In this document: positions 29,934 through 47,819 of the stretch, one piece after another
How positions within the stretch are numbered: position 1 is the stretch's first letter
Layout of the letters: every line of letters begins with the position of its first letter
Assembly: GCA_054600435.1 (NCBI GenBank)
Contig: BAAIJX010000003.1
Location: forward strand, 806,001-856,010
Direction: 5' to 3'
Source of the DNA: Neophaeotheca triangularis
Taxonomy: Eukaryota
DNA length: 50,010 bases
Notes under the pieces: generated by a model
What the model was told of the DNA's origin: nothing
What the model saw: only the letters and a program-made list of their open reading frames with translations
The model's database searches: none
Translations under genes and position numbers: made by a program

Positions 29934-31483
29934 TCAAGCATTGCAAGTCTGATAAGCCCTCGGAAACGCAACGACATCTTTAATCGACTGCGCCCCCGTC
30001 AAATACACCAGTAGCCGCTCAAACCCGATGCCAAACCCCCCGTGAGGCGACGTGCCATAGCGACGCAGATCCGCAAACCATGTGAGCGAGTCCAGGCTCT
30101 CCCCTTCGCGCACATAAGGATAGTCTCCGCCCTTCTCCAAACCCATGCCGGCATTGCTCTCTTTGAAGAAGTCTTTTTCCCGTATCACTTCCACGAGCTT
30201 GTCAAGGCGGTGCTCTCGAAGACCTCCCGAGAAGACTTCGGCCACGCCGGGGAGTAGCAGGTCTACAGACTCCGTGGTCTGCACGCCGTTCTCAGTAGAT
30301 GGCGGTGGCGACTGCAACGCGGAGAAGAGACGTATCTTTGTCGGGTAGTGGGTGACGAAAACCGGGCGCTTGAAGTGCTGTAGTAGGAACATCTCATGCT
30401 CCGTCGAGAAGTCGATCTCAGGTCCCGGCTTCTCGTCAAAGTTCGTCTCCTCTCCGCTCACAGCGTCCAACATCAACGCCACAGCTTCCGCGTGCGTGAT
30501 CCTCGGCCAGTTGGGCTCACAGAGCAGCTCCCACCTGGCCCGCAGCTCAGAGCTCGTGACTGGTGTTGTACCAGCACGACCAACGCTCTCAAGCAGTTCG
30601 CGACCCACAGGAGAAGCTCGAAGCCTCTGTATAAGCCCACGAGCAAAGTCCTCGCACATCTCAAGCAACGGCTCCAAAGCCTCGACATAATTAATCGCAA
30701 CCTCCAGCATATGGAACTCCGCCAGATGCTTCTCATCCAACACCCTCTCAGCGCGGAAACTCGGCGCAAGCATCCAAACACGATCCAAGCCCATTGCAAA
30801 AGCTTCCCCATGAAGCGCCGCCGTGACGGACAGGTAGCGCCGCCCGCCGAAGAACTCATCCCGGAGCACGGTATTCTTCTTCGACCTCTGCGTCAGGACG
30901 GGGAAAACTTCCGCTCCGCCTTCGCAATCGGTGTGTGTGATTACCGGGTGGTGGACTTGGGTGAAGGTGCCTTCGGGGTGCGTGGCGAAGTATTCGGTGA
31001 TTGCTGCGATGGTGGCAGACCGGAAACGCATCAGGAGACCTTGCCAAGGGGTTCGTAGTCGGAGGTGTGGGTGTGCTAATGTTGCAGAGGGGCCGTGGTT
31101 GAGGGGGTTCGAGGCGTCTGATAGACCTAGGACTTTGGCGTCGGATACTTGCAGTTCGTGCTTTTGGTCTTGGCTTAGGATGCGGTTGCCTTGCAGCTGG
31201 ATTGTCGACCATTTGGGTAGGTCTTTGATAGTCTGTGAAGGCTGTTCGATGCGGGCTCGTAGGGGGCGGATCGTGCTGCCATCGTGGATGGTGATGATTC
31301 GAGCGTCGGAAGTGCTGTCATCTTTGTCACTTGATACTTCGTCGACTGTCCCGGAGAGAGTGACCGGATAATCCAGACGTGAGTTGTTCGGTGTAGTGTG
31401 AGGTGGGTAAGTGGGTAAGTTGATATTCTTACAGCAAAAGGGAAAGACAAAGGCGTTAGAAGGAGGGCTCAACTAACACGCAT
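29934..31483 (-). CDS. Divergent asparaginyl-tRNA synthetase-like protein (class IIb; related to the mitochondrial-type AsnRS)
   Basis: Contains HPHLRLRTP, motif 1 region FTQVHHPVITHTDCEGGAEVF, motif 2 PSFRAE..HLAEFHMLE, PVFVTHYP and motif 3 DLRRYGTSPHGGFGIGFERL. The start is uncertain; one model is ATG 31483 plus an intron 31477-31428. Confidence 0.8.
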
Positions 31484-33315
31484 AGCTCATTCCCTCTAGT
31501 GGCGGTCAATGTGCACGAGGCAGCTACTCTTATGAAACGTTACGGTCGAGCAACGATAACGTACGCACTCTACAAAGTCAGTCGACGACAACAGGCAGCT
31601 ATCGAGCAAACCTCCGGCAGTAACGGTCCAACGCGTACCAAGACCCACAGACCCGATACAGCCGTCGACTCGACGAGACCACGGTGATCACGAGGTGCCT
31701 GAACGCCTCAGACTCGGCGAATCCTGATTGTGAAGAGCTCAAGGTACAGAAAACGCAAACGTTCTTGCTACGCAACCAACGCGGATCGAACTTGCTGTAT
31801 GCGGGAGCCCTTGGGACTGCATGCGTGGCGCAATACGCACATTCCAGATGCGGTGGTGGTGTCGCCACGCCATCTAGGAGACCACCTTCCAAGGTAAACC
31901 CCCCAGCTGAATGTTGATATTGCGTGGAGAATTGCTTCGAGCCATTGTACCGTTACCCAGGACATCCCTTAGCTTCTCAAGGTGCAGTCCCGAGTGTGCG
32001 CTCTTCTTAAAAAGGGGCATAATCTGTACCAATCCTGCGCAGAACCCTCATCTAGGCAGCCTGTAACCTACCCCTCACGTTCGCGCTGATCGACCCGGCA
32101 TCTGCAGTACTGTATTGGAATGCGCATACTACCTCAGAGATGCCACACGCTTTATGGGCTCGCGTGATATCTTGCCTCCGCGAGCGCAAGGCTTGCAAGC
32201 CGCGAAGTATATCTAGGAGGTCATGTTGCGCAATGCCAAGCTCATTCGCTATATAAGCTTACTCGATAAGGCATAGCGGATCAGTTTAGGCTCGTCGCTC
32301 GACTTCACCTCTTCTCCCTAACTTCTTCTTTGTGTAGATTTGACCTACCTTCGAGCGTTATCATAACATATATATGGCCTCCCAAGGAAGCCTGCGATCA
32401 CCGCCTCAGTACTAGAAAAGCATTGACTGAAGTCTCGAGCTCATTGTTACGCCCGCCCAGTGCAAGGAAACCCTGGCCTGCGGGTGGCCGGACGCAGTCC
32501 GACGCAGCTCCTCCGCTTAGAGTTCCCCCCGGATGCAGGCGCTCGTAACCTACGATGCAGTGCTGATACCACGACTGATTATCTGGTCTTTGATTGCACT
32601 AATCAAGACGTGCTTGTATGCGTCAAAAGCTTGCAGACAGCTACTCGTCAGGCGTGATCACCTTGCATTCCGCTGATGTTCTTCGATCAGCCGCCAATTG
32701 CCATCAAGTAGCGCGCCCTAGTCTAGCCGACCGGCCCTTGAGTTACGTTGGTGTATTCTTGGGTTGCGAAGAAGTAGAGCGTAGACCTGAGACAGCTCAA
32801 GCCGCAACGGTGTCGGCAAGGATTGACCGGATAAGGAGTGCTGATACAAAGCGCCATTTCTATTCGTGCTTTTGGTTCCGAAGTCCAAACAATACACTAC
32901 CTAGACGCTGCGCGCTGTGCCGCTCGAGACGTGCGCCTACCTTTACGAGCACGATTGCTCTACTGTAGTACTTACTCGGCCAGAACGCAAGCCCGCCTGG
33001 CAAAGGTCTAATTTCTGTACTAGATAACCTTCGCTCAGTGGTCAATCATGGCCGCATCGAGTAAATGCTTACCGCACTTTACTTACATCGGCTGTCTAGC
33101 GCTCAGGTGTCTCACTGGTCCTATGCAAGTGTTGAAGTGACTAGAGATATGAGGGGTCCATGCTGGGTTTGGTGGTAGGTGGACTGATGCGGTTACATCT
33201 CGCGTCGGTCTCCGCCTCAAAACGTGCTATAAATCAAGGCTCTCCTTGTCGATGACACAGCTCTCATTTACAATCCTGGAATTTGGCGACTTGTCAGCCA
33301 GCTTATCGTTCTGTC

Positions 33316-35410
33316 ATGAGCGTCGAAACCCAGTCTTTCACCAAAAGCCAGGAGGCCACCAACAGATGGCCAGGACGAATCAAACTCCGTCCAACTGGAA
33401 GTTCGCCATGCGGCGCTGAGCAGTATAAAATCGAGGAGCAAAGACCTGTCAAGGTGCAGGTGCCCTTCGACTCGTCACTCGGCATTGCCGCTCACTTTGC
33501 AACATGGATATGCTACAGTGCATATCTCGTATTGCGGTTCATGGGTATCAAAGAGTCTCCCTCGCTATGGTCATCGCTCATCTATCTCTGCGAAGTCTCT
33601 TTCATGCTTCAGGAGTTGCAAACTGCCGTGGAGCTAAGTTTCTCGCTTTTGGGTCCACGGGATGCTTTTCAATACGCCCAATACGTCTTGAGGGGAAATA
33701 CAGCACCCAAGGTAGCCGTCTTCGTCACGTCAGGCTTCCCGCTCGATCAGTTACCCGGAGTTTTGCTGACAGCTATACAGTGTTTGTGGAGAGGACCTAT
33801 CTACGATCATGGACACTGTGGCAGCCGCCGTATTCCAAGAATATCCAGCCGAAGCATTCAAAGTCTTCGTCTTGGATGACGCTGCGGATCAAGACTTGCA
33901 AGAAGCTGTCAAGACCTTCAATGCCTCGAGCTGCATGCGGGAATCTGGTTATCAAGAAGTGGTATACAGCGCTCGAGAAAAGGTTCCCGGTTTTCGGCAC
34001 TTTTACAAATCCGGTAATCTGCGCGCTGGCCTCGACTTCGCAGCCCGCGATTACGTTGCTTGGGAATACTTCGCTTCGCTGGACGCAGAAATGATATCAG
34101 AGTCCGATTGGCTTTCTCGAACCGTTCCACATCTCGTCAAAAACACGGACGTCGCGCTCGTGAGCCCTCCGCAAATCTCATACAACATATTGGAAGAAGA
34201 TCTGCTTTGTCAGGATGCGAACAATTACTCGCAGATTCTGGAGCCCACTCGAGGTTTCATCGGATGCAGTCAGTGTTCGGGCTCGGGGTATGTGATGCGC
34301 CGCAGCGCGGTAGAGTCTATTGGGGGCTGGCCCCTACGTGCAATCGGTGAAGACATCATCTGTTCGAACATGTTGCTCGCCAAGGGTTGGAAAACAATGT
34401 ATATACCGGATCAACTGCAATTTGGACAGTCGCCGGATTCCTTACACGCTGCGATCAGTCAGAGAATCCGCTGGGTGAGCTGCTATTGATCAATGATCGG
34501 GGATACTCAAAACCAGACTCGCTAATACGGAAGCGGACAGACTTACGGCAGTCTTTTACTAGGACAGCAGTTCGGCCTCTCCTTCCTGACCTCCGAGCAG
34601 GGCAAGAAAATGACTGGTCCCCAGCGTACACTGTCCATGATGGGCGCACTCAAAGCGTACGCCTCGATCTTTGCATTCGTTGCTACTGTATGTCTGCCCC
34701 TCTGCTTCTGGGCTTTTCAGACAGGCCGCCTCGAGGCCAGGACGGAACGGCAGAGCATCCGGCTAGCACTTCTCTCGCACTTTGTCGCCTCATCGCTATC
34801 AAGAAAACTCGTGTACGGTCGCCTGGGAGGAGCAAATGCCACCAACATAGCCACGAACCGAATCTGGGGCTCGCCATGCAAAACTCCCCACCGCAGACCC
34901 AACTAGCATTCACACTGACCCAGCCTAGTCAACGCTTTCTGCGCGATCAAATCCCTCTTCAGCGATATTTCCAACACGGCCTTCAAAGTCTCCGGCACCT
35001 TCATCTCCCCGACCGAAGAGCGCTACGCCGCCCGCCGCAAGCCCTTGATGACGCGCATGTCGAGCCCGGTCATCATAGGCTACACGTGTTACTTCTCAGT
35101 CGCCGCAGCCGCTTTGGCAGTCTCCATCGCGTTCGTCGCCCACCGCCACTTCCTCGTACAAACGGACAGGTTTCACATGTACACCGGCGCGGCTTTGAAG
35201 CTAATCGATCTGGTCCTGGCCGCGGCCGTTCCAATTCGGTACATGGCTTTTCCGCCCTCGATCCCGGAGCGGCGGGGATTACTCGTCAAGGACGCGAAGG
35301 GGATCTATCGCTCGGGCAAGAAGGAGTGGAGGAAGAGGGATGGGAAGGCTGGATTTAAGCTTAAGCTTCTGCTTCAGGTCGTGGTTATCTTGCTGTTTGA
35401 CTGGCTGTGA
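33316..35410 (+). CDS. Processive glycosyltransferase family 2 (cellulose-synthase-like membrane protein), 4 exons
   Basis: Motifs VCGED, VLDD, KSGNL, LDAEM, SPPQ, SGSGY, GEDI and QRIRW, plus transmembrane helices. Predicted introns 33729-33780, 34475-34540 and 34878-34928; the last needs a GC donor. Confidence 0.8.
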
Positions 35411-37303: not shown

Positions 37304-38023
37304 GGTTGCGGTTGTGTATGGGGACAAGGAACTACTGCCCTGGCCGAGCTGCCGTTGGTGAAGTCGGCGGGCGTAGAGAAATTCGAGATTGCATGACTCG
37401 CGCCAGTGGGGTTATAGCCTCAGGCATCAAACTATTAGAAACTTGATACTTCCAACACCGCCTCGATCCTCCAATCCTTCAATCACTAATTCGAGAGCAT
37501 CTCACATGTCTGCTGACTGCCGCATGTAGGGTATCAATGCTGCTTCCCTGCTCATATTCAGGCTCAGGCTGAGGAAGGCTGAGGCTGAGGCGGAACTTGA
37601 GTGTGCAAACCGACCGGGCCACTGCGTGAGGGGCCTTCGATTCGTGAGCAGAAGCAGAGTACAATGTCACAGAAAGAATACCGGTATGGCACCCACCTAT
37701 CACACTCACACTCACACTCACTGCAGCTCCGCTCAGCTCAGCTCACAGCCTCGTGGTGCATCCTTCATAGCCTCATGCCGCTGTTTCCAGTCGCGAAGCA
37801 GTCGCCTTGTCGTCCACGACCCGGCAAGGCTACCTAATGTAGGTAGGTATCGACTTGGTAGGTAATGTAGTAATGTAAGTTGCTCTTTCTTATTCCTTCG
37901 TCTTTCCTTTCGTTTCAAATCTCCGACTTGCACGCAAGAGGGAGTTGATCGAACAAAACGCTGCAGGAGCTGTAATACCATATTCAGAAGGAAACGGCAG
38001 TACCACCACCGGCCGCCGCCGCC

Positions 38024-40880
38024 ATGGCAGTCTCCGCCTCACTGGCAGCCCACTCTTCGGCCATCCAGTCAGCCATCCATGCAGTGTCAACCGCATATCC
38101 TACGTCTAGCATCATCGGCATGCCAGAACCGCCGGTGCTCGCCGGCTATCAAAACTTTTCGTCCGTAGAATGGGACCTCGCGGCTCATAGTTTGACCTAC
38201 AAACAGTCATACTGCTACCGGCCCGGCTCACTACCCGTAGCCCTGGCATGGAACGATACTTGTCTGCCGGGCTTCTTCTGTCCAAATTCCACCGATCGGC
38301 AGCCACCGCAATTCTGTCCGCCGTATGAAAGGTGTCTGATTTTCCGCGCTGGAAAGGGAACATGCAACAAGCAGGGCATACTCGAACCACGCATTTGCAT
38401 CGATGGTCATTATTGTCCGGCGGGAGGCAAGAGGCAGATTGAGTGTCCGGCGGGAAGCTTTTGTCCTTCCGGCACGCTTGAACCGTTCAAATGTGATTTT
38501 GGTGCCATCTGTCCAAAGGGATCGAAGCGACAGATTGCAATCGTCCCGACGGTATTGGTGCTTATGGTTGATGTCCTACTTGGCATACTAATAGCTGTTG
38601 GCTTCGGCATCTCGCGATGGAGGAGGAGGAAGCCAAAGAGGTACACTACGTTGGGAGCACACAATAGCAAAGATGATCTGGAGCTCCTGCGAAATCCCGT
38701 CTTGACAGGAAGGTTGCGAGGCTTATCAAATGCCAGCGCGGAAACCCACAAGACGAACATGTCTAGCCCCGACCTTGATGCCACCCCAGCAGATACCCCG
38801 ACGCTGCCAACAAAATTGAGACGGACAAGCGGGCGTGCCGATCACCTATCTGCCTACAGTGTCTTTGACGGCGCTTCCGATGCCAGCAGTGACCTCGAGG
38901 AAGAGTTTGCCGATAGCCCCGACTTTCAACGCTTCATCCGGTCAATGTCAAGAACGATACATACCAAGAACGTTGGATTGTCTTTCGATTTCGAGAACTT
39001 GGACTTCACCACCAGTAGTGGGAAGAAGATACTCAAGAACGTGACTGGCACCATGCCTAGGGGCTCAATGTGGGGCATCATGGGAGGCTCCGGAGCTGGA
39101 AAGTCAACGTTCATGAACGTGTTGATGGGAAAAGCTATCACCACCGCCGGAACGGTGAAGATCAACGGCTGGGTGAAGGACATGAAAAAGTACAAGAAGC
39201 TTATCGGTTACGTACCGCAAGACGATATTGTGTTCCCAGAGCTGACCGTGCGCGAGAACATCCTGCACTCAGCTCGATGCCGACTACCAGCGAACTGGCG
39301 GGACAAGGCGATTCAAGACCACGTCGACTCGCTCATTGCTTGCCTGAACCTCACTCATGTGCAGCATTCCCGGGTAGGCGACGCCAACAAGCCCGTGATC
39401 TCGGGCGGGCAGCGGAAGCGAGTGAACATTGGGCTGGAGCTTGCGGCAGCCCCCATGGCCATTCTGCTCGACGAGCCCACGTCTGGACTAGATGCAACGT
39501 CTGCAGCGAGCATCATGAGGCTGTTGAAAGCCATTTCTCGACTAGGCGTCACCACCATAGCCATCATACACCAACCTCGCGAGCAGATTTTCTACGGCTT
39601 CGATCAACTGATGCTTCTCGCCCAAGGCAGGACGGTCTACAGCGGCCAAACCGACAATGTCCAGCACTACTTCGAAAGCATGGGCTTTGCCTTTCCCCAA
39701 CGCGGCAACCCCGCAGACATCATAATCGACATAGCCACCGGCGACGGTGCGCAGTACACACTCAATTCTTGCCGACACGACGTCGATGCAAACATGCTCA
39801 TCGACCACTGGGACAAGCGTGGCCAATACGGCGCCTCAAGCCATTACCTCTCCCCAGAAGACCCTACGCGCCGTCTCCGCCGCATTTCCAACCAATCCAT
39901 CTCCAGCACGGCCGAGCAAGAAGAATCCCTCCGCCAAACCATGCAAGCCCGCGGCGCAACTTGGGTCGCCCAAGTCTACTACTGCTGGAAACGAGCTACG
40001 ACTCAACAAATCCGCAACTACGGCAGCTTCTTCTTCGAAATCGCCGTCGGCGCCCTCGCAGGCGGCATCATCGGCCTCTCCGCCTTCGGCAGCGAGGGCC
40101 ACCTCTTCCAAGGAATCTACCACCCGCCCTTCACCATGCTCTCCAGCGCCGTCGACTACCAATCCGTCCCGCAGATCGGGCTTCTAGGAGCCATGGCCAT
40201 CGGCCTCGCGGCCGCAGCCCCAGGCGTCAAAGTCTTTGGCGAGGAAAACCTCGTCTACTACCGCGAAACGGCCTCGGGGCATTCGCGATCCGCCTACTAC
40301 GTCGGCAAAGTGCTTTCCACCCTTCTCCGCATCGTCCTCAGTAGTTTCCACTTTACGGTTTTCTTCGGCGTGTTGGCGACGCCCATGATGCGTTTTGTGC
40401 ACATGTTCGCCGCCAATGTCATGTACTTTTGGTGTATCTACGGACTGGCGAGCTGCGTGGCCATGGTTTCGAAGCGCGAGGACGGTCCGCTATTGGCGGT
40501 CTTTGCGAGCTTGGTTATTGGGATTTTGGGCGGAGTGGCGCCGCCTTTGAGTAAGGTGAAGAGTTGGGGAGTCGAGTAAGTGGGATCCCACCACCATGTT
40601 GCTTCCGGTCGATGGAACCTTTGATTCGAAAGGGCTGACTTTGTGTTCTTGCAGATGGCTCTGGCGCATGTCGCCTGGTGTCTGGTTTACTGAAGCGTAT
40701 TTTTCGCAAAACTTGCTCCCGCTCAAACATCTCTACGTGCTCGAGTTGGCTGCCGAGTATGTTGGTTATACGCTGGGGCAGTACACGTTGGATATTGCTA
40801 TGCTCTTTGTTATTGGGCTCGTTTACAGGGTGGTTGCGTACTTGGGACTGGTGTTATTGAATCGCAAAAGGCAGATTTGA
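38024..40880 (+). CDS. Half-size ABCG transporter with an N-terminal Cys-rich extracellular domain, 2 exons
   Basis: Walker A GGSGAGKST, GYVPQDD, signature ISGGQRKR, Walker B LLDEPTSGLD and H-loop IHQPR. N-terminal CxxGxxCP repeats followed by one transmembrane helix. Intron 40576-40654. Confidence 0.9.
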
Positions 40881-41113
40881 TCGGTTAGGGACTTGGTTAT
40901 GCAACCGGAAGAGCATGCAGCTAGTCTTTGGATGCTTCAATATATGTCATTGGTCCATCCAGGCAGCTCTGTAGATGTGAAGCTAACCAAGCATTCCAAG
41001 ATGCTATACCCTCCATGCTGCTTTGTCCTATATCGTCGCTCGAACGCAATGCACAATGCAAATCGGAATCACAACCACAAACACTCCGGCAGAACAACTG
41101 CGCCTCGGCACTG

Positions 41114-43018
41114 CTACTCGCCCATCTGTTCCTCCATTTTCGCATCCATGCGCACCCGCCAATGATCCCCGAACCTCTTCATTGCCCAGATAGTCAACAC
41201 GCCACCAACGACGGAAATCAGCCCTATGATTGTAAACAACCACCCATTCCCAATAGCATCAATGAGCGGCTCCGCAACAGCACCACCCACACATGAAAAG
41301 ATATTCCGCACAAAATTATTCAGCGCGATCCCATGCGAAGCCTTCCTGGGCATAAACTCCGTCAGCATGGTGGTGATCATGGCGAAAATCAGCATGGAGC
41401 CGATGCCAAAGAAGAAATTCGCAACCATGGGGCCCGCGACGTTGACGCGGAAGTGCGCACACCAGCCGTAGGTTATGAGAGCCGCGGGAAAGAGGAAAGC
41501 CGCTATCCAGGCGTTTTCTTTCATGCGGTCTTCGGGGCGGAACTTGAGGCGGCCCTTTTCGTCGTAGCGGCCCGCTTTGCGAGCTTCGCGGTGCATGATT
41601 CCATCGACCCAGCGGCCGCCGAGGAGGGAGGAGAGGAAATAGCCGAGGGAGTTGGGGATGTAGAGCACGCCGACGATGATGGAGCTGTAGTTGTAGGGGG
41701 ATGCCGAGAAGGTTGCTTGCACGGAGATGTTGAGCATGTAGAGCGAGCCGAAGGTGATGCTGGCGTAGAGGACGGAGATCGCCACGGCTGGGAATTGGAG
41801 GTAAAGGATGATTTTTAGAGGGTCCAGGAAGGCGCGGCGGAGCATGGAGAGGTAGTGTTTGCTTTTCAGCCTTACTGATTGCTGGGTTTGTGTACGGTTT
41901 AGTGTTGGTCTGGGTACGTCTTTGTCGTTTTCCATCGCAGTGGGCGTTTCGTCTTCTTCTCGAGTTGGTACTAGAGGCTTGCTTGTTTTGAGTGTTTCTG
42001 GGAGAGCGAAGAGGATGGCGACAACGACGAACACGCCGAATATGGCCAAGAAGTATTGTAAACTTCTCCATCCGAGTCCCTGGGCAAGCGCACCTCCTAT
42101 GATTGGGGACAGGAGAGGACCGCATAGGGGACCAAGATAGAAGAAACCCATGGCTCGGCCTCGCTCTTTGACCTCCCAGATATCAGCAATCGTGCCGGCT
42201 CCTACGGCTTGCACGCTTGCGGCAGCGCCACCCGACAATATCCTCATGACGATGAACATGGCGACATTCGTGCTGACAGCAGCCAACACGTTGAACACAA
42301 TGAACAGCACGAACGAGGAAAGGTAGATTGTTCGTCTCCCGAGGGATTCCGAGAAACTGCTCCACCACAAAGGGAAGATACTCATCGAGAGCATGAACAT
42401 TGCAACGGACAAGTTGACAATGGTGCCAGTCGTGTTGAATTCATCCGCAATGTCCGTCAAGGCGGGTAGGACGATCGAGGAGCCCATTGGAGCGGCAGCG
42501 CCAGCGAAAGCTACGATGGCTGTGATAATCCATTTCAATCGACGTGAGTAATCGAAAGGCTCCGTAACTTCTGCTACTAGCGATAAGCGAGCCAATATAC
42601 CACGGCGTTCCGATCGCGGTACCTTGACGGCTTCGGGCTGGATAGATCGAGCGGACGATTGCGCTCGACTGCGGGCAGAGTAGGCACGACTTCTGCTCCT
42701 TCCAGGGCGGATATGCGAGCCTTCGAACGTGTGCTCGGTCTCATGGGACGTATCCGAAGCATTGGAATCATGTCTTCGGGGGACCTTGAGAATCTCTTCT
42801 GTGTTTGAGGGGGGAGCTGCCGTAGCTGGAATGTCGGGCTCGTTGGTCAGACCAGGATTCACATCTGGTGGGCAAGGCGACCTTCCGCGCTCGGGGCTGT
42901 CGTCTCTTGATGACCGAGAGCTTTTTAAAGCATTGCCGACACTCTCGACAGAAGACGAGGATCTCCAGGTTGGCTCTGCCTCTTCGCGTGCTGCACGCTC
43001 GGGGCTAGATCCTCTCAT
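41114..43018 (-). CDS. MFS drug:H+ antiporter, DHA1 family (Dtr1/Qdr-like)
   Basis: Motifs WSSFSESLGRRTIY, GAGTIADIWEVKERGRAMG, GPLLSPIIGG, GWRS and NNFVRN; 12-transmembrane pattern. The start could be extended by an upstream exon. Confidence 0.9.
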   Translation of the reverse strand: MRGSSPERAAREEAEPTWRSSSSVESVGNALKSSRSSRDDSPERGRSPCPPDVNPGLTNEPDIPATAAPPSNTEEILKVPRRHDSNASDTSHETEHTFEGSHIRPGRSRSRAYSARSRAQSSARSIQPEAVKVPRSERRGILARLSLVAEVTEPFDYSRRLKWIITAIVAFAGAAAPMGSSIVLPALTDIADEFNTTGTIVNLSVAMFMLSMSIFPLWWSSFSESLGRRTIYLSSFVLFIVFNVLAAVSTNVAMFIVMRILSGGAAASVQAVGAGTIADIWEVKERGRAMGFFYLGPLCGPLLSPIIGGALAQGLGWRSLQYFLAIFGVFVVVAILFALPETLKTSKPLVPTREEDETPTAMENDKDVPRPTLNRTQTQQSVRLKSKHYLSMLRRAFLDPLKIILYLQFPAVAISVLYASITFGSLYMLNISVQATFSASPYNYSSIIVGVLYIPNSLGYFLSSLLGGRWVDGIMHREARKAGRYDEKGRLKFRPEDRMKENAWIAAFLFPAALITYGWCAHFRVNVAGPMVANFFFGIGSMLIFAMITTMLTEFMPRKASHGIALNNFVRNIFSCVGGAVAEPLIDAIGNGWLFTIIGLISVVGGVLTIWAMKRFGDHWRVRMDAKMEEQMGE

Positions 43019-43667
43019 TGCCACCCTGTTGAGATCGACCTCAGGGTCTGCGGTTAACCAGTGGATCGAACCAAAGCTTTGGGGCCTAACTCCCTTCGAT
43101 CCCTCGTACAGTTGTTACCATTCGAGGCACACTCGAGGGCTCTGATAACTCAAGAGGCAAAATAATAGTCGGGTGAAACTGTTGGTTAGGAGGTCTGTGA
43201 GAAAGCGTCCCAGGTGTCAATCAAACAAAGACAGACTCTGAACAGATGACGATATGGAAAGCAACGATATGATGAGTGTTACGTGCCGTCGACTGCGAGG
43301 GGCATACCTACGAAAACTCATTACAATACGGTTACAACGGCATTGGAGCTCTCAAGGGCCGCTTCAAGAGACGTAGAGAGGTGTGCAGGAGGAGGTACCT
43401 TAGCTTACATTGTAGTCGATTGCCGAGCAGCCGGCCGGTGTTTTTGGCCGGCTTAAAACCGACGACCTGTTATCGGAGGTATGCCGACGTCGGACGTCGT
43501 CGTTGCCACGGCTCGCTCTTTAACGTCAAACCACCTCATCCAAATATATCTTCTTGTATGTCTTTGTGGTTAAATAACTGTAGGCAATGCTCAAATGGGT
43601 CGCAGCTGCATACCGTGAACTAGCACCCAAAAAGCTCAAACAACTCACACTGCAATATCAGAAAACT

Positions 43668-44483
43668 ATGGCGGACCCTCGAGAAACATTACGGAGCGCT
43701 TTCCTAGATCAACCACCAGAGAAGCTCGCGGGGAAATGGGACGACATGTGGAGGAGCAAAGTCACTCCATGGGACCGAGACTTACCAAACCCGGCCCTTG
43801 TCGATATTCTAGCAGGTGGCATGCTAGGATCTCCAATCACCAACGATGGGCAACGGAAGAGAGCACTTGTCCCAGGCTGCGGCAAAGGCTACGATGTGCT
43901 GCTGTTTGCCAGCCATGGTTATGATGCTTACGGCCTTGATGTTTCAGAGACAGCGCTTGAAGAGGCGGGCAATGTCAGGCAGAGAGATGCCGACGATGAA
44001 ACCAAATATCCCATGCGCGCACCAAAGAGCAAAGGGAGAGGCGAGACGGAATTCCTCATGGCCGACTTCTTCAACGACTCGTTCCTGGAAAAGACCCAAG
44101 GTAGCAGCTTTGATATCATATACGACTACACATTTCTATGTGCTTTACCGCCTGCTTTGCGGCCGCAATGGGCGAGGCGAATGAGCAGCTTGCTCTCCCC
44201 CAACGGCAGGTTGGTGTGCTTGGAGTTTCCTCTGCACAAGGACCCGAAGATGGGCGGTCCGCCTTTTGGGCTTCAATCGAATCTCTACGAGGCGCTTTTG
44301 AAAGCACCCGGAGAAGCAGTGGAGTACGATGAGGCTGGTAAACCGAGCAAAGAGCCGGAAAACGTTGGCAAAGGCTCACTCATGAGGATCGAGCATTGGA
44401 AGCCCGAGCGCACGCACAAGGTCGGCGAGGGAACTGATATGGTGTCGATTTGGAAGCATCGGGCGACAGAAAAGGTCCGTTAA
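43668..44483 (+). CDS. SAM-dependent halide/thiol methyltransferase (TPMT/HOL-like family)
   Basis: Motifs WDDMW..TPWDRDLPNPAL, ALVPGCGKGYDV, ADFF, FDIIYDYTFLCAL, CLEFP..GPPFG and WKPERTH. An alternative in-frame ATG lies at 43587. Confidence 0.88.
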   Translation: MADPRETLRSAFLDQPPEKLAGKWDDMWRSKVTPWDRDLPNPALVDILAGGMLGSPITNDGQRKRALVPGCGKGYDVLLFASHGYDAYGLDVSETALEEAGNVRQRDADDETKYPMRAPKSKGRGETEFLMADFFNDSFLEKTQGSSFDIIYDYTFLCALPPALRPQWARRMSSLLSPNGRLVCLEFPLHKDPKMGGPPFGLQSNLYEALLKAPGEAVEYDEAGKPSKEPENVGKGSLMRIEHWKPERTHKVGEGTDMVSIWKHRATEKVR

Positions 44484-45820
44484 GTGATCCTGATGTCTCC
44501 ATATTATACAGGAGTTTACAGTGCCACAGTCAAACATCTAGGCATCGGATCTGACGCCAGGAAGCTGAAGGGCAGCGAGTGGCTTCCAGTCGTACCGAGG
44601 CTTTGTAGAGCATAAGCGAGGGATACGCCGAGCAAGAGAAGCTGCAGTCTGCAGACAGTGCAGCTGTCAAATGCAGTACACTATTACTGATGAAAGCTTG
44701 AAGCCTAGGCTTCGGTGTATCGCTCGCGGGTGTTAGCCCGAATGCTCATGAAGTAGCTGGCATATTGGCATTGGAGAGCACAGTAGCAATGAACATTCGA
44801 TAGCTGCAAAACTAAGACGCAGGGATCGTGTACCACCTCTTTTATTGCTCCTCTACCTGGGTAGTAGCTAGCGTAGCTGTCATGGAAGGTTTGGTGTGCT
44901 GATAGCTCCTCGGCTACATCGGCACGTGGCGCCATGCGGAAGCCAGACCTTTCCAAGTCAACCTTGGAACATCTTGCGTGCAGGGGGATGCTTAGAATAT
45001 TGAACGGCATCTCGTTTCTCAAAGAACACCAACTGATCATGATAATTTCCAACCTACATGCGCAACACGTTTGGGTCCAGGTTCAAAAGGAAAGCAGTGC
45101 ATCCCTACTTTTTGCAGCCACCGACGGTGAGCTCCATGGACGTGTAAAAAACACTTCGCCGTCACGTCAAGATGCGCCAATCTATTCAAACCGCGCCAAA
45201 TCCCCTTGGCGACACCGCAGTCGCACCGCACCGGCACCGCATTACAGTATCCTCATTATTGTTGCATGATTCCCCACGAGAGCTCCTTTACTTTACACAT
45301 TCCGCCTTCGGATCCATCCCGTCTTTTCTTTCCGCCGAGCTCCAGAGGACCAAAGACTCAACTCCGAGCAGAGAAACACCAACTCCGCTCCCGAGAGCCG
45401 ATCTTCTGTGAGCCGGCTGCACTATGCCGCTCGTAGCAGGTCAAATGGCAAGTGGTACTGTACTCACCGTGTACTCACCACAGCGCGACCATCTTGACCT
45501 CCCCTTCAAGCAAGCCATCTACCTGTCTCTATATGTCAGCACACGCGTAGGTTCGCATCTAAGAAGCTCTCATTCTCGTCATCTCCTCTTACTACCTACC
45601 TCCCTATTCTCACCTAGCATCTTCCATTTCCCCGCCGAACTAACTCTGGATATTCCTACTCCTGTACCGCATCTCCGCTGAGCATTGGCACGTTGTCTCA
45701 AGATACTTGAGACACGCTCGTAATACTTCTACATAACACTTCTACCCGACCGAGCCCCAGCACCTCCGATGCCACCGCACCGATCGCTTCGATAAATCAC
45801 GCATTTAGCAGTCGGACATA

Positions 45821-47819
45821 ATGCCCGGCGAAGATGCTCCAGAGAAAGAGATGGCAGCAACAGGGAAGCGCTCCTCGGTCACGTCCCACGAGGATTCAGG
45901 CCGATCGCCTAGTAGTACACACGGATCGGATAATGATACAATATCAGAAGCTTCTTCGCCAATTGAGGGTGACTATGATCGTCGAGGCAAGGCGCTACGA
46001 CCAACAATATCCCACGCGTCGAGTGCGACAGGCGCTGTAGGCGGCATACCTCCCCATATATTGGACAGAGCTCAAACGAGACGGAGCACCGCAACCAACG
46101 CGACATCAGATCTGGCTTTCGAGGTTGACTTCGAGGACGAAGACGATGGGAACCCGCAAACATGGCCAATGTGGTTCAAGGCAGTGATTCTCGCGGTCAT
46201 GAGCTTTGCTACCACCTCTGTCGTCCTGTATAGCACTTCTTACACTTCAGCAATACCCGGCATGGAAGATGAGTTTGGCATTTCTAATGATATTGCCAAT
46301 CTGGGTATCACAACGTACCTTCTCGGCATGGCTGTTGGCGCAGTCATTCTTGCGCCTCTCTCCGAGATGTTTGGCCGCAGACCGGTCTATATCGTTGCGT
46401 TGGGACTTTTCGTGATACTGACCATACCTTGCGCACTCGCACCGAACATTATCGCTATTCTTGTAACGAGATTCTTTGGCGCGTTCTGCGCAGCTGCTAT
46501 GATATCCAACGCACCTGGTACAGTGTTTTCGTTTGACGAGCGCACTTTAATCACACATTCTGACATGCTCCAGGTACTGTGAACGACATCATCGACGAGG
46601 AGTACCGGGCATTGGCGTTCTCGATCTGGAGTATAGGTCCAATGAACGGCCCAGGTCAGTCACCCAAAGACGCCTGATTGTCCGATCAGTGGCTGACAAT
46701 GTGTTCACAGTGATTGGTCCCGTGGTGGGCGGCTTTACTTTCCAGGGACTTGGTTGGAGATGGACCAATTGGGTAGTGACCTGCGTTTCCGGGGCTGCTT
46801 TCGTAGCTGTCGCTTGCATAAGAGAAACTTACGCACCATCTATATTGAGAAAGCGTGCGGAGAAGAAAAGGAAGGAAACTGGCGATGCGAGGTGGTGGAG
46901 CCGGTACGACGCGAAGACCGAGTTCTTACCACTGCTGAAGGTCAACCTTTCACGACCTTTCGTGATGACCGTCACCGAGCCGATCCTCATATTTTGGGAC
47001 CTCTACATCGCCATTGTCTACGGAATTCTTTACCTCTGCTTCGTTGCCTACCCCATTGTCTTCAATGGCTTGCGAGGGTGGGCTCCCGGAATAGGCGGCC
47101 TGGCATTCTGCGGCATAGGGGTCGGAAGTTTGATCGTCATCGTCTGCGAACCGCTTATCCGGAAAATGATCAATGCCCACAAGAAGGACGAAGATGGAAA
47201 CGTGCCCCCCGAAGCCATGGTCAGCGCCGTCTGCATTGCTGCAATCTGTATCCCAGCCGGCCAGATCTGGTTCTCCTGGACTTGCACGCCCAACGTTCAT
47301 TGGATCTGGCCTATTCTTGCTGGCATCCCGTTCGGCGCGGGCAACGCTGCCGTCTTCATCTACGCCACCAACTATCTCGTCCACAGTTACGGCGTCTACG
47401 CCGCCTCAGCGCTCGCTGGGAACGCAGTCCTGCGGAGCATTATGGGTGCCACGCTGCCCCTTGCGGGGCCTGCAATGTACGCTGCCCTGGGGCCCAATTG
47501 GGCTGGAACGCTGCTCGGTCTGGTGGAAGCTGTCTGTATACCTATCCCTTTCATCTTCTACCGCTACGGCCACAAGATCCGGCAAAAGTCGGCGCTCATC
47601 CGCTCTATGCAAGAGGATAAGCGGAAAATGGACACGAAGAAGAGGGTCGCAGCTGAGAAAGAGGAGAGAAGGCTGGAGCTGGAGGCAGAAGGCGGTGCTG
47701 GCATGCTCACGGGTTCTGCGTTGGAGGAGATGGAGGACGCGGAGCAAGATGTTGAAAAGGGGCATTTGCATCGTTATCATCAGCATGATTTACATCAGGG
47801 CAAAGAAGCTGGCGGGTGA
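45821..47819 (+). CDS. MFS multidrug transporter, DHA1 family, 3 exons
   Basis: Motifs NPQTWP, APLSEMFGRRPVY, GPVVGGF..GWRW, ETYAPSIL, RPFVMTVTEPI and YAASALAGN. Introns 46518-46573 and 46655-46710. Confidence 0.9.

Follow-up and report, generated by a model that had tools for sequence, protein, structure and literature searches.

This analysis concerns a gene resembling asparaginyl-tRNA synthetase (AsnRS) on the minus strand of a 50,010-nucleotide stretch of the Neophaeotheca triangularis genome (contig BAAIJX010000003.1, positions 806,001 to 856,010; the whole stretch is called the window here), together with the small clade containing its protein, which we name D-type. The pattern of aligned residues leads us, on balance, to favour a reading in which the gene is an accessory, most likely cytosolic and non-translational descendant of a fungal mitochondrial AsnRS that adenylates an amino acid; with greater assurance, we consider that D-type proteins are probably not working translational ligases for tRNA-Asn. 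The best functional lead is a conserved neighbouring gene, not seen by the earlier note that had been made on this DNA from its letters, which encodes a family 2 glycosyltransferase (GT2). It is the conserved D-type/GT2 pairing that is new; a repurposed paralogue of a class IIb aminoacyl-tRNA synthetase (aaRS) is of a known kind.

The closest match to the window protein is an annotated N. triangularis protein, P0001, which is 99% identical to it. The next 35 matches are 44-81% identical and carry the PF00152 domain only, PF01336 (the anticodon-binding oligonucleotide-binding, or OB, domain) being present on none of the 36 best rows. The window protein itself matches PF00152 alone (E 2.9e-51), with no match to PF01336 in a Pfam search at E up to 1. 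Canonical mitochondrial AsnRS, which have both PF01336 and PF00152 and many of which are named Slm5, are 34-39% identical to it. Given that only three of 1.84 billion representatives at 50% identity (722, 455 and 335 bits) outscore the canonical enzymes, which reach at most 300 bits, the D-type family is very small. Its members are publicly annotated as 'asparaginyl-tRNA synthetase', 'class II aaRS and biotin synthetase' or 'hypothetical protein'. Against the asnS equivalog model TIGR00457 (cut-off 342.6 bits), however, the window protein and a second D-type protein, P0370, score 282.4 and 238.7 bits and fall below, whereas the canonical fungal controls P0106 and P0368 reach 464.3 and 456.5 bits; nor is the cut-off of NF003037 reached by the window protein (278.5 versus 414 bits).

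To place the family, a maximum-likelihood tree (quick search, LG+C20) was built from 83 chosen rows, namely the window protein, 17 further D-type rows, 28 named canonical enzymes and 37 other representatives. All 18 D-type rows fall on one branch, whose stem measures 0.96 changes per column and which has a support of 100 in the Shimodaira-Hasegawa-like approximate likelihood-ratio test (SH-aLRT). This branch lies inside the Pezizomycotina mitochondrial AsnRS, beside Eurotiomycete and Lecanoromycete enzymes (placement support only 91-93), while the canonical Dothideomycete enzymes form a clade of their own (97) elsewhere in the tree. Since the D-type is a single branch set apart from the Dothideomycete canonical clade, we conclude that it is a paralogue, as the earlier note had proposed, and not a fast-evolving orthologue. 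The literature searched by full text yielded no account of such an AsnRS-like paralogue in fungi. On the canonical side, the mitochondrial AsnRS model of Polychaeton citri, P0166, has 797 residues and an extra mitochondrial-carrier domain (PF00153), and is probably a fused gene model.

Of the 17 named species with a D-type gene, 10 were seen to have a canonical enzyme as well. Extremus antarcticus holds both, its D-type protein being 60% and its canonical enzyme 37% identical to the window protein; the same is true of Aspergillus nanangensis, A. unguis, A. tubingensis, A. vadensis, A. luchuensis, A. brasiliensis, A. candidus, A. campestris and A. taichungensis. Among the matches listed there is no canonical entry for N. 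triangularis, Cladosporium fusiforme, Zasmidium cellare, Xylariomycetidae sp., A. affinis, A. neoniger or A. costaricaensis. The presence of the D-type gene appears to be patchy even between close Aspergillus relatives: the section Nigri D-type cluster of P0026 (8 members) includes A. tubingensis, A. neoniger, A. vadensis, A. luchuensis and A. costaricaensis, while A. niger is missing from it, yet abundant in the canonical cluster.

The residues kept and lost were compared between 26 D-type rows and 36 canonical fungal mitochondrial AsnRS rows. In 164 columns, the canonical rows are conserved to 90% or more, and the D-type retains 84 of these; in 30 columns, the canonical residue persists in at most one of the 26 D-type rows. 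The Arg and Glu of motif 2, the acidic Mg ligands and the GFG.GF.R of motif 3 are invariant in D-type rows. Likewise, Glu242 and Arg404 of the window protein, which align to Glu225 and Arg368 of T. thermophilus AsnRS, are invariant across all 62 rows; we take these two to recognize the side chain of Asn. The 30 lost columns include Arg, Lys and Phe residues of the OB domain, Q-K-Y of the hinge, Ser and Thr of the motif 2 loop, Gln204, Leu207, Glu244, Tyr369, Met370 and Gly400/Ser402.

Many of these losses fall where tRNA would be recognized. In the OB domain, the canonical GWVRSVRKQK..AFAAV becomes SG.VD.VS..I.I across the clade; in the window protein, the Arg of GWVR is replaced by Asp, the Phe of AFAAV by Ile and the Gln of LQAV by Arg. 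These three canonical residues presumably bind the anticodon base U35, as in class IIb structures. The hinge Q-K-Y (QKKY) is lost clade-wide, as are the Ser and Thr of the motif 2 loop (canonical RAE(K/R)SDT.RHL), which we assume to contact the acceptor end. Further clade-wide changes are Gln204 to Ala or Val, Leu207 to Gly or Ala and Glu244 to Ala, and K.FYM becomes RLFSA, GGS becomes SGG and Asp470 becomes Glu throughout the D-type. The segment N-terminal to the OB domain is, by median, 19 residues long with a charge of 0 in the D-type versus 48 residues and +4 in canonical enzymes, which points to the D-type having no mitochondrial presequence. The OB domain carries a net charge of -2 in the window protein and a mean of -2.2 over the 26 D-type rows, versus +3.0 over the 36 canonical rows.

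The earlier note had described the class IIb core as intact, the anticodon-reading Arg, Phe and Gln as replaced and the presequence as not evident, and it had listed VTAALH, the motif 2 loop and SGGLRE as deviations. Each of these observations is borne out: FRAE (motif 2) and GFGIGFER (motif 3) are both found in the window protein, VTAALHGE and RLFSALQS are also present in the minus-strand translation, and the deviations are genuine but common to the whole clade rather than specific to the window. Its description of the anticodon-binding domain as decayed holds for the sequence determinants and fails for the fold. In an AlphaFold2 model of the window protein (pLDDT 85.1, pTM 0.86, from a 62-row alignment), residues 22-101 form a five-strand barrel with strands at 22-33, 43-48, 56-60, 75-84 and 90-101 and a block pLDDT of 86-97, low confidence being limited to residues 6-11 and 163-203. 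By sequence, the nearest solved relative is the AsnRS 6pqh (1.3e-47), and the top Foldseek matches are full-length AsnRS structures (6pqh, 9sh8, 2xgt and 1x54). On this model, the domain is predicted to be re-surfaced rather than structurally decayed.

To see the genomic setting of the family, metagenome contigs were scanned with the D-type alignment, which gave 49 loci, six of them D-type. Locus L001 is a partial repeat of L006, L004 is a repeat of L005 and L002 is short, leaving four independent contexts: the window, L003, L006 and L005. In all four, a GT2 gene lies adjacent to the D-type gene, upstream and on the opposite strand. None of the other window neighbours was found at L003, L006 or L005, so that GT2 is the sole conserved neighbour. 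The fungi in which the pair is seen are black yeasts and those of Cladosporium type; several Aspergillus sections also have the D-type gene. No description of an aaRS-like/GT2 pair was found in the literature searched by full text. Other genes accompany the pair in the relatives, in shuffled order: a His_Phos_1 gene in three of the four contexts (L006:6745-7410(-), L003:3955-4593(-) and L005:11498-12178(-)), a beta-lactamase-family gene (PF00144) in two (L005:5547-6854(-) and L003:7221-7931(+)) and a Sulfotransfer_4 gene in one (L006:8053-8919(+)). This suggests a small metabolic cluster in the relatives, reduced to the D-type/GT2 pair in the window.

The GT2 gene encodes the motifs VLDD, LDAE, GEDI and QRIRW (34460-34474), followed downstream by hydrophobic segments; the D,D,D,QxRW motifs are retained at all four loci. 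At 34084-34092 the window copy reads LDAEM versus LDADM in three relatives, a conservative difference that nonetheless affects a catalytic motif, at the second acidic residue of the DxD type. Its nearest solved relative is BcsA (3e-13), and a search of the ESM Atlas with the GT2 exon returned generic GT2 clusters only. With BcsA and with Tft1/CelA the protein shares the D,D,D,QxxRW motifs and the downstream membrane helices; unlike CelA itself, however, it scores far under the cut-off of that model, its top NCBIfam match (91.5 versus 699.1 bits, from a scan of the 239-residue exon), and its likeness to Tft1 is not a claim of orthology. In the passages available of a preprint (bioRxiv 10.64898/2026.09.17.752320), Tft1 is presented as a fungal mixed-linkage glucan (MLG) synthase, and the term tRNA has 0 occurrences in those passages.

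Given that the membrane-bound, processive GT2 of the cellulose-synthase type is the sole conserved neighbour and is divergently arranged, we tentatively suggest that the D-type protein acts with it in one pathway, although our confidence in this coupling stays somewhat below even. The D-type protein would bind ATP/Mg and an Asn- or Asp-like amino acid and form an acyl-adenylate, since the arginines of motifs 2 and 3, the acidic Mg residues and the counterparts of Glu225 and Arg368 are all retained. It would no longer find tRNA-Asn, with the basic OB surface, the Arg/Phe/Gln for U35, the hinge QKKY and the Ser/Thr of the motif 2 loop gone. The import presequence appears to be lost as well, and the pocket for the alpha-amino group and the side chain is remodelled, with Ala in place of Gln and of Glu, FSA in place of FYM and SGG in place of GGS. 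Because the features for finding tRNA and the presequence are lost and the pocket is remodelled, the activated acyl group would probably be handed to a non-tRNA acceptor, and the pair may, for example, use an amino acid to decorate or prime a beta-glycan or glycoconjugate. In its most specific form, which we regard as unlikely but worth stating, the AsnRS-derived enzyme and GT2 would constitute a two-gene system that transfers the aminoacyl-adenylate to a sugar acceptor, yielding an amino-acid-decorated beta-glycan, oligosaccharide or glycoconjugate; in the relatives, this product would be modified further through the histidine-phosphatase, beta-lactamase-family and sulfotransferase genes linked to the pair.

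The combination of kept adenylation residues, lost tRNA and targeting features, a remodelled pocket and a coexisting canonical enzyme resembles that of known repurposed aaRS paralogues, and it is by this analogy that we favour an adenylating, non-tRNA ligase. The earlier note's proposal of a repurposed, non-translational ligase is thus partly supported: the loss of tRNA elements and presequence and the retention of adenylation residues speak for it. With the Slm5-type enzymes of TIGR00457, the family within which it arose, the D-type shares the order of OB domain and class IIb core, the fold, motifs 2 and 3 and the Glu and Arg for the Asn side chain. Unlike them, it has no presequence, an acidic OB domain and changed anticodon, hinge, loop and pocket residues, stays under the equivalog cut-off and coexists with a canonical enzyme.

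Several class IIb paralogues that work outside translation offer further comparisons. In AsnA and the archaeal AS-AR (PDB 3p8t, 1nnh), class IIb cores have been turned to tRNA-independent adenylation and amide formation. The window protein shares this core and has weak similarity to 3p8t (4.3e-11); unlike these proteins of ~300 residues, which have no OB domain, it has one, and it falls far short of the cut-offs of the AS-A models (NF005052, 82.2 versus 368 bits; NF005054, 64.2 versus 309 bits). EpmA/PoxA (GenX) is alike in concept, being a class IIb paralogue that attaches an amino acid to an acceptor other than tRNA, but it is a bacterial, LysRS-derived EF-P lysine ligase without an OB domain, and the window protein does not reach the genX model (27.6 versus 286.9 bits). 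ErdS, a fungal fusion of AspRS with DUF2156, aspartylates ergosterol in a tRNA-dependent manner. It is similar in being a fungal class IIb paralogue that works outside translation, and differs in being tRNA-dependent and fused to a transferase, the window protein having PF00152 only.

A number of observations weigh against an accessory enzyme working beside GT2. The adjacency is known from four related Dothideomycete-type loci and is possibly inherited synteny; the His_Phos_1, beta-lactamase-family and sulfotransferase genes were not found in the window by tblastn (E up to 1); and a secondary-metabolite cluster at the window was rejected, there being no polyketide synthase (PKS), nonribosomal peptide synthetase (NRPS) or terpene core among its 36 long open reading frames (ORFs). 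The low AlphaFold2 confidence at residues 163-203 affects a segment that adjoins the modelled active site. The retained pair of Asn-side-chain residues and the retained OB fold make some tRNA-linked activity possible. Furthermore, Neophaeotheca, Cladosporium and Zasmidium are absent from the best 120 matches to a canonical Dothideomycete enzyme, and the D-type has possibly replaced the canonical enzyme in these lineages; this absence is weak and not decisive, given that many rows carry no species name. The ancestral start codon is absent from the window copy. Finally, in X2, another DNA run under the same organism name, the last 108 codons (on one contig) show 3 synonymous and 6 non-synonymous differences, Arg404 to Gly and Gly463 to Glu being among the latter, and the contig across the GT2 catalytic exon is missing 5 bases at 34000; both the AsnRS-like gene and GT2 may be decaying in the X2 strain.

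Part of this evidence would agree with a working AsnRS, either as the sole mitochondrial-type enzyme (by xenologous or paralogous replacement) or as an inhibitor-resistant copy with unusual tRNA-Asn recognition. The missing canonical entries of the three genera point that way, as do the retained motif 2 and 3 residues, the counterparts of Glu225 and Arg368, the confidently predicted OB fold and the solved relatives, the nearest of which are all AsnRS. Nevertheless, we consider a working AsnRS improbable: the protein falls below an equivalog cut-off that canonical fungal enzymes exceed, the anticodon-contact, hinge and motif 2 loop residues are replaced across a separate, long-stemmed clade, the OB domain is acidic, the presequence is absent, ten species have a canonical enzyme alongside, and the X2 strain carries Gly at Arg404. 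As for inhibitor resistance, which the earlier note had offered as a possible role, it is unlikely because a resistance copy must keep tRNA-Asn recognition and organelle targeting.

Another alternative is a catalytically silent regulator or scaffold, acting as a sensor of an amino acid or ATP and possibly controlling GT2. aaRS paralogues in regulatory roles exist, HisZ being one, and both the conserved GT2 neighbour and the altered substrate pocket are in keeping with such a role. However, the ATP/Mg and adenylate residues are invariant in all 26 D-type rows, which is unexpected for a pure scaffold, and we hold this explanation to be rather unlikely.

The start of the gene bears on whether the window copy is intact. 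Read as an ORF, the D-type gene runs uninterrupted on the minus strand from 29934 to 31472, 512 codons from stop to stop. The unbroken frame described by the earlier note therefore stands, but its start does not, as the ATG at 31483 is off by 2 from the main frame. The earliest in-frame ATG is at 31031, and a start there would lose the N-terminal domain. A start at 31483 requires a 50-base intron to come into frame, and the putative two-codon exon and consensus intron given in the table below would restore such a start. D-type relatives have a single exon and an N-terminus of M..MPRRLTIARF; in a DNA alignment, their ATG is gone from the window gene, which has +17 and +1 insertions within its first ~20 codons. 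The 17-base insertion, relative to L006, L003 and L002, contains a tandem duplicate of CTTACCCA (window 31400-31425, minus strand); together with the later +1 insertion it shifts the frame of ~15 N-terminal codons, and the two coincide with the loss of the ancestral ATG. A 'RRLTL' frame near 31585 was ruled out as the lost N-terminus, having neither an ATG nor a workable splice. The public model P0001 starts at an ATG at 31490 and splices to 31344, reading MSYAF joined to DEVSS. Its intron shares its donor with our putative one and has its acceptor further on, and the first OB strand, VTLSGTV, is dropped. Since this conserved strand is removed, the P0001 model (31344-31490, minus strand) looks mis-spliced.

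The X2 run, for which assembled contigs only were compared and a few contig differences are not listed, provides a measure of constraint. Over codons 72-497 (29937-31212) there are 30 listed differences from the window, 17 synonymous and 13 non-synonymous, for a ratio of ~0.25 per site; codons 72-400 account for 14 synonymous and 7 non-synonymous changes. One X2 contig passes from 30259 to 31183 with a single T between them, which leaves out 923 bases of the AsnRS-like gene. The window copy has 2 unique changes (R233K and L257M) at otherwise D-type-invariant sites, other members having 0-8. Taken as signs of a recently disabled, functionless relic in N. triangularis, the lost ATG, the 5' insertions, the substitution of Arg404, the 923-base skip and the GT2 deletion are outweighed by the open 512-codon frame, the consensus intron that restores a start, the mere two changes at invariant sites and the mainly synonymous differences over codons 72-400, making this the least probable explanation. 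The X2 differences fit a dispensable accessory pair, though they do not prove it.

Table 1. Positions, in window coordinates, of the AsnRS-like (D-type) gene, its parts and the neighbouring GT2 gene.
Feature	Position	Strand	Basis and remarks
Main coding exon, AsnRS-like (D-type) gene	29934..31427	-	497 codons + TGA stop at 29934-29936; open frame, PF00152
Putative 50-base intron	31428..31477	-	Inferred; GTTAGT donor, CTAAC branch point, AAG acceptor
Putative first exon, two codons (ATG CGT)	31478..31483	-	Inferred; sole ATG splicing in frame via a consensus fungal intron
N-terminal OB-fold domain, residues 22-101	31125..31364	-	AlphaFold2 strands; sequence VTLSGTVDEVSSDK...ARIITIHDGSTIRPLRARI
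Class IIb catalytic domain, residues 120-497	29937..31070	-	PF00152; nearest solved structures are AsnRS
Motif 2 and loop, FRAERVLDEKHLAEFHMLE	30702..30758	-	Arg, Glu and later Glu retained; canonical loop Ser and Thr replaced
SGGLRE for canonical GGS(M/L)RE	30213..30230	-	Arg retained; Gly/Ser positions swapped in 26/26 D-type rows
Motif 3, HGGFGIGFER	30015..30044	-	Minus-strand translation
Cellulose-synthase-like processive GT2, multi-exon	33316..35410	+	Pfam GT2 families; divergent from the AsnRS-like gene; exon borders approximate

By Pfam, the 36 long ORFs of the window are housekeeping and transporter genes, among them those for GEN1, NSUN2, a TLC-domain protein, V-ATPase d, a 5'-nucleotidase, a reticulon, eIF3i and isocitrate lyase. 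Others encode an ABCG-type transporter (37976-40576, +), an MFS transporter (41117-43114, -), a TPMT-type methyltransferase (43584-44480, +) and a second MFS transporter (45809-47816, +). This transporter/methyltransferase run (37976-47816) showed no connection with the AsnRS-like gene.

Repurposed aaRS paralogues such as AsnA, EpmA, HisZ and ErdS have each exposed new biochemistry. The D-type is a conserved yet very rare fungal family whose public names mask its failed tRNA features, which calls for caution in automated annotation and in counts of the fungal aaRS complement. Its OB domain, retained with an acidic surface, may be re-used for a new partner. Finally, the pairing with GT2 gives rise to a testable hypothesis, that glycans or glycoconjugates are modified in a new way; if true, sugar aminoacylation would be a carbohydrate route not described in fungi.

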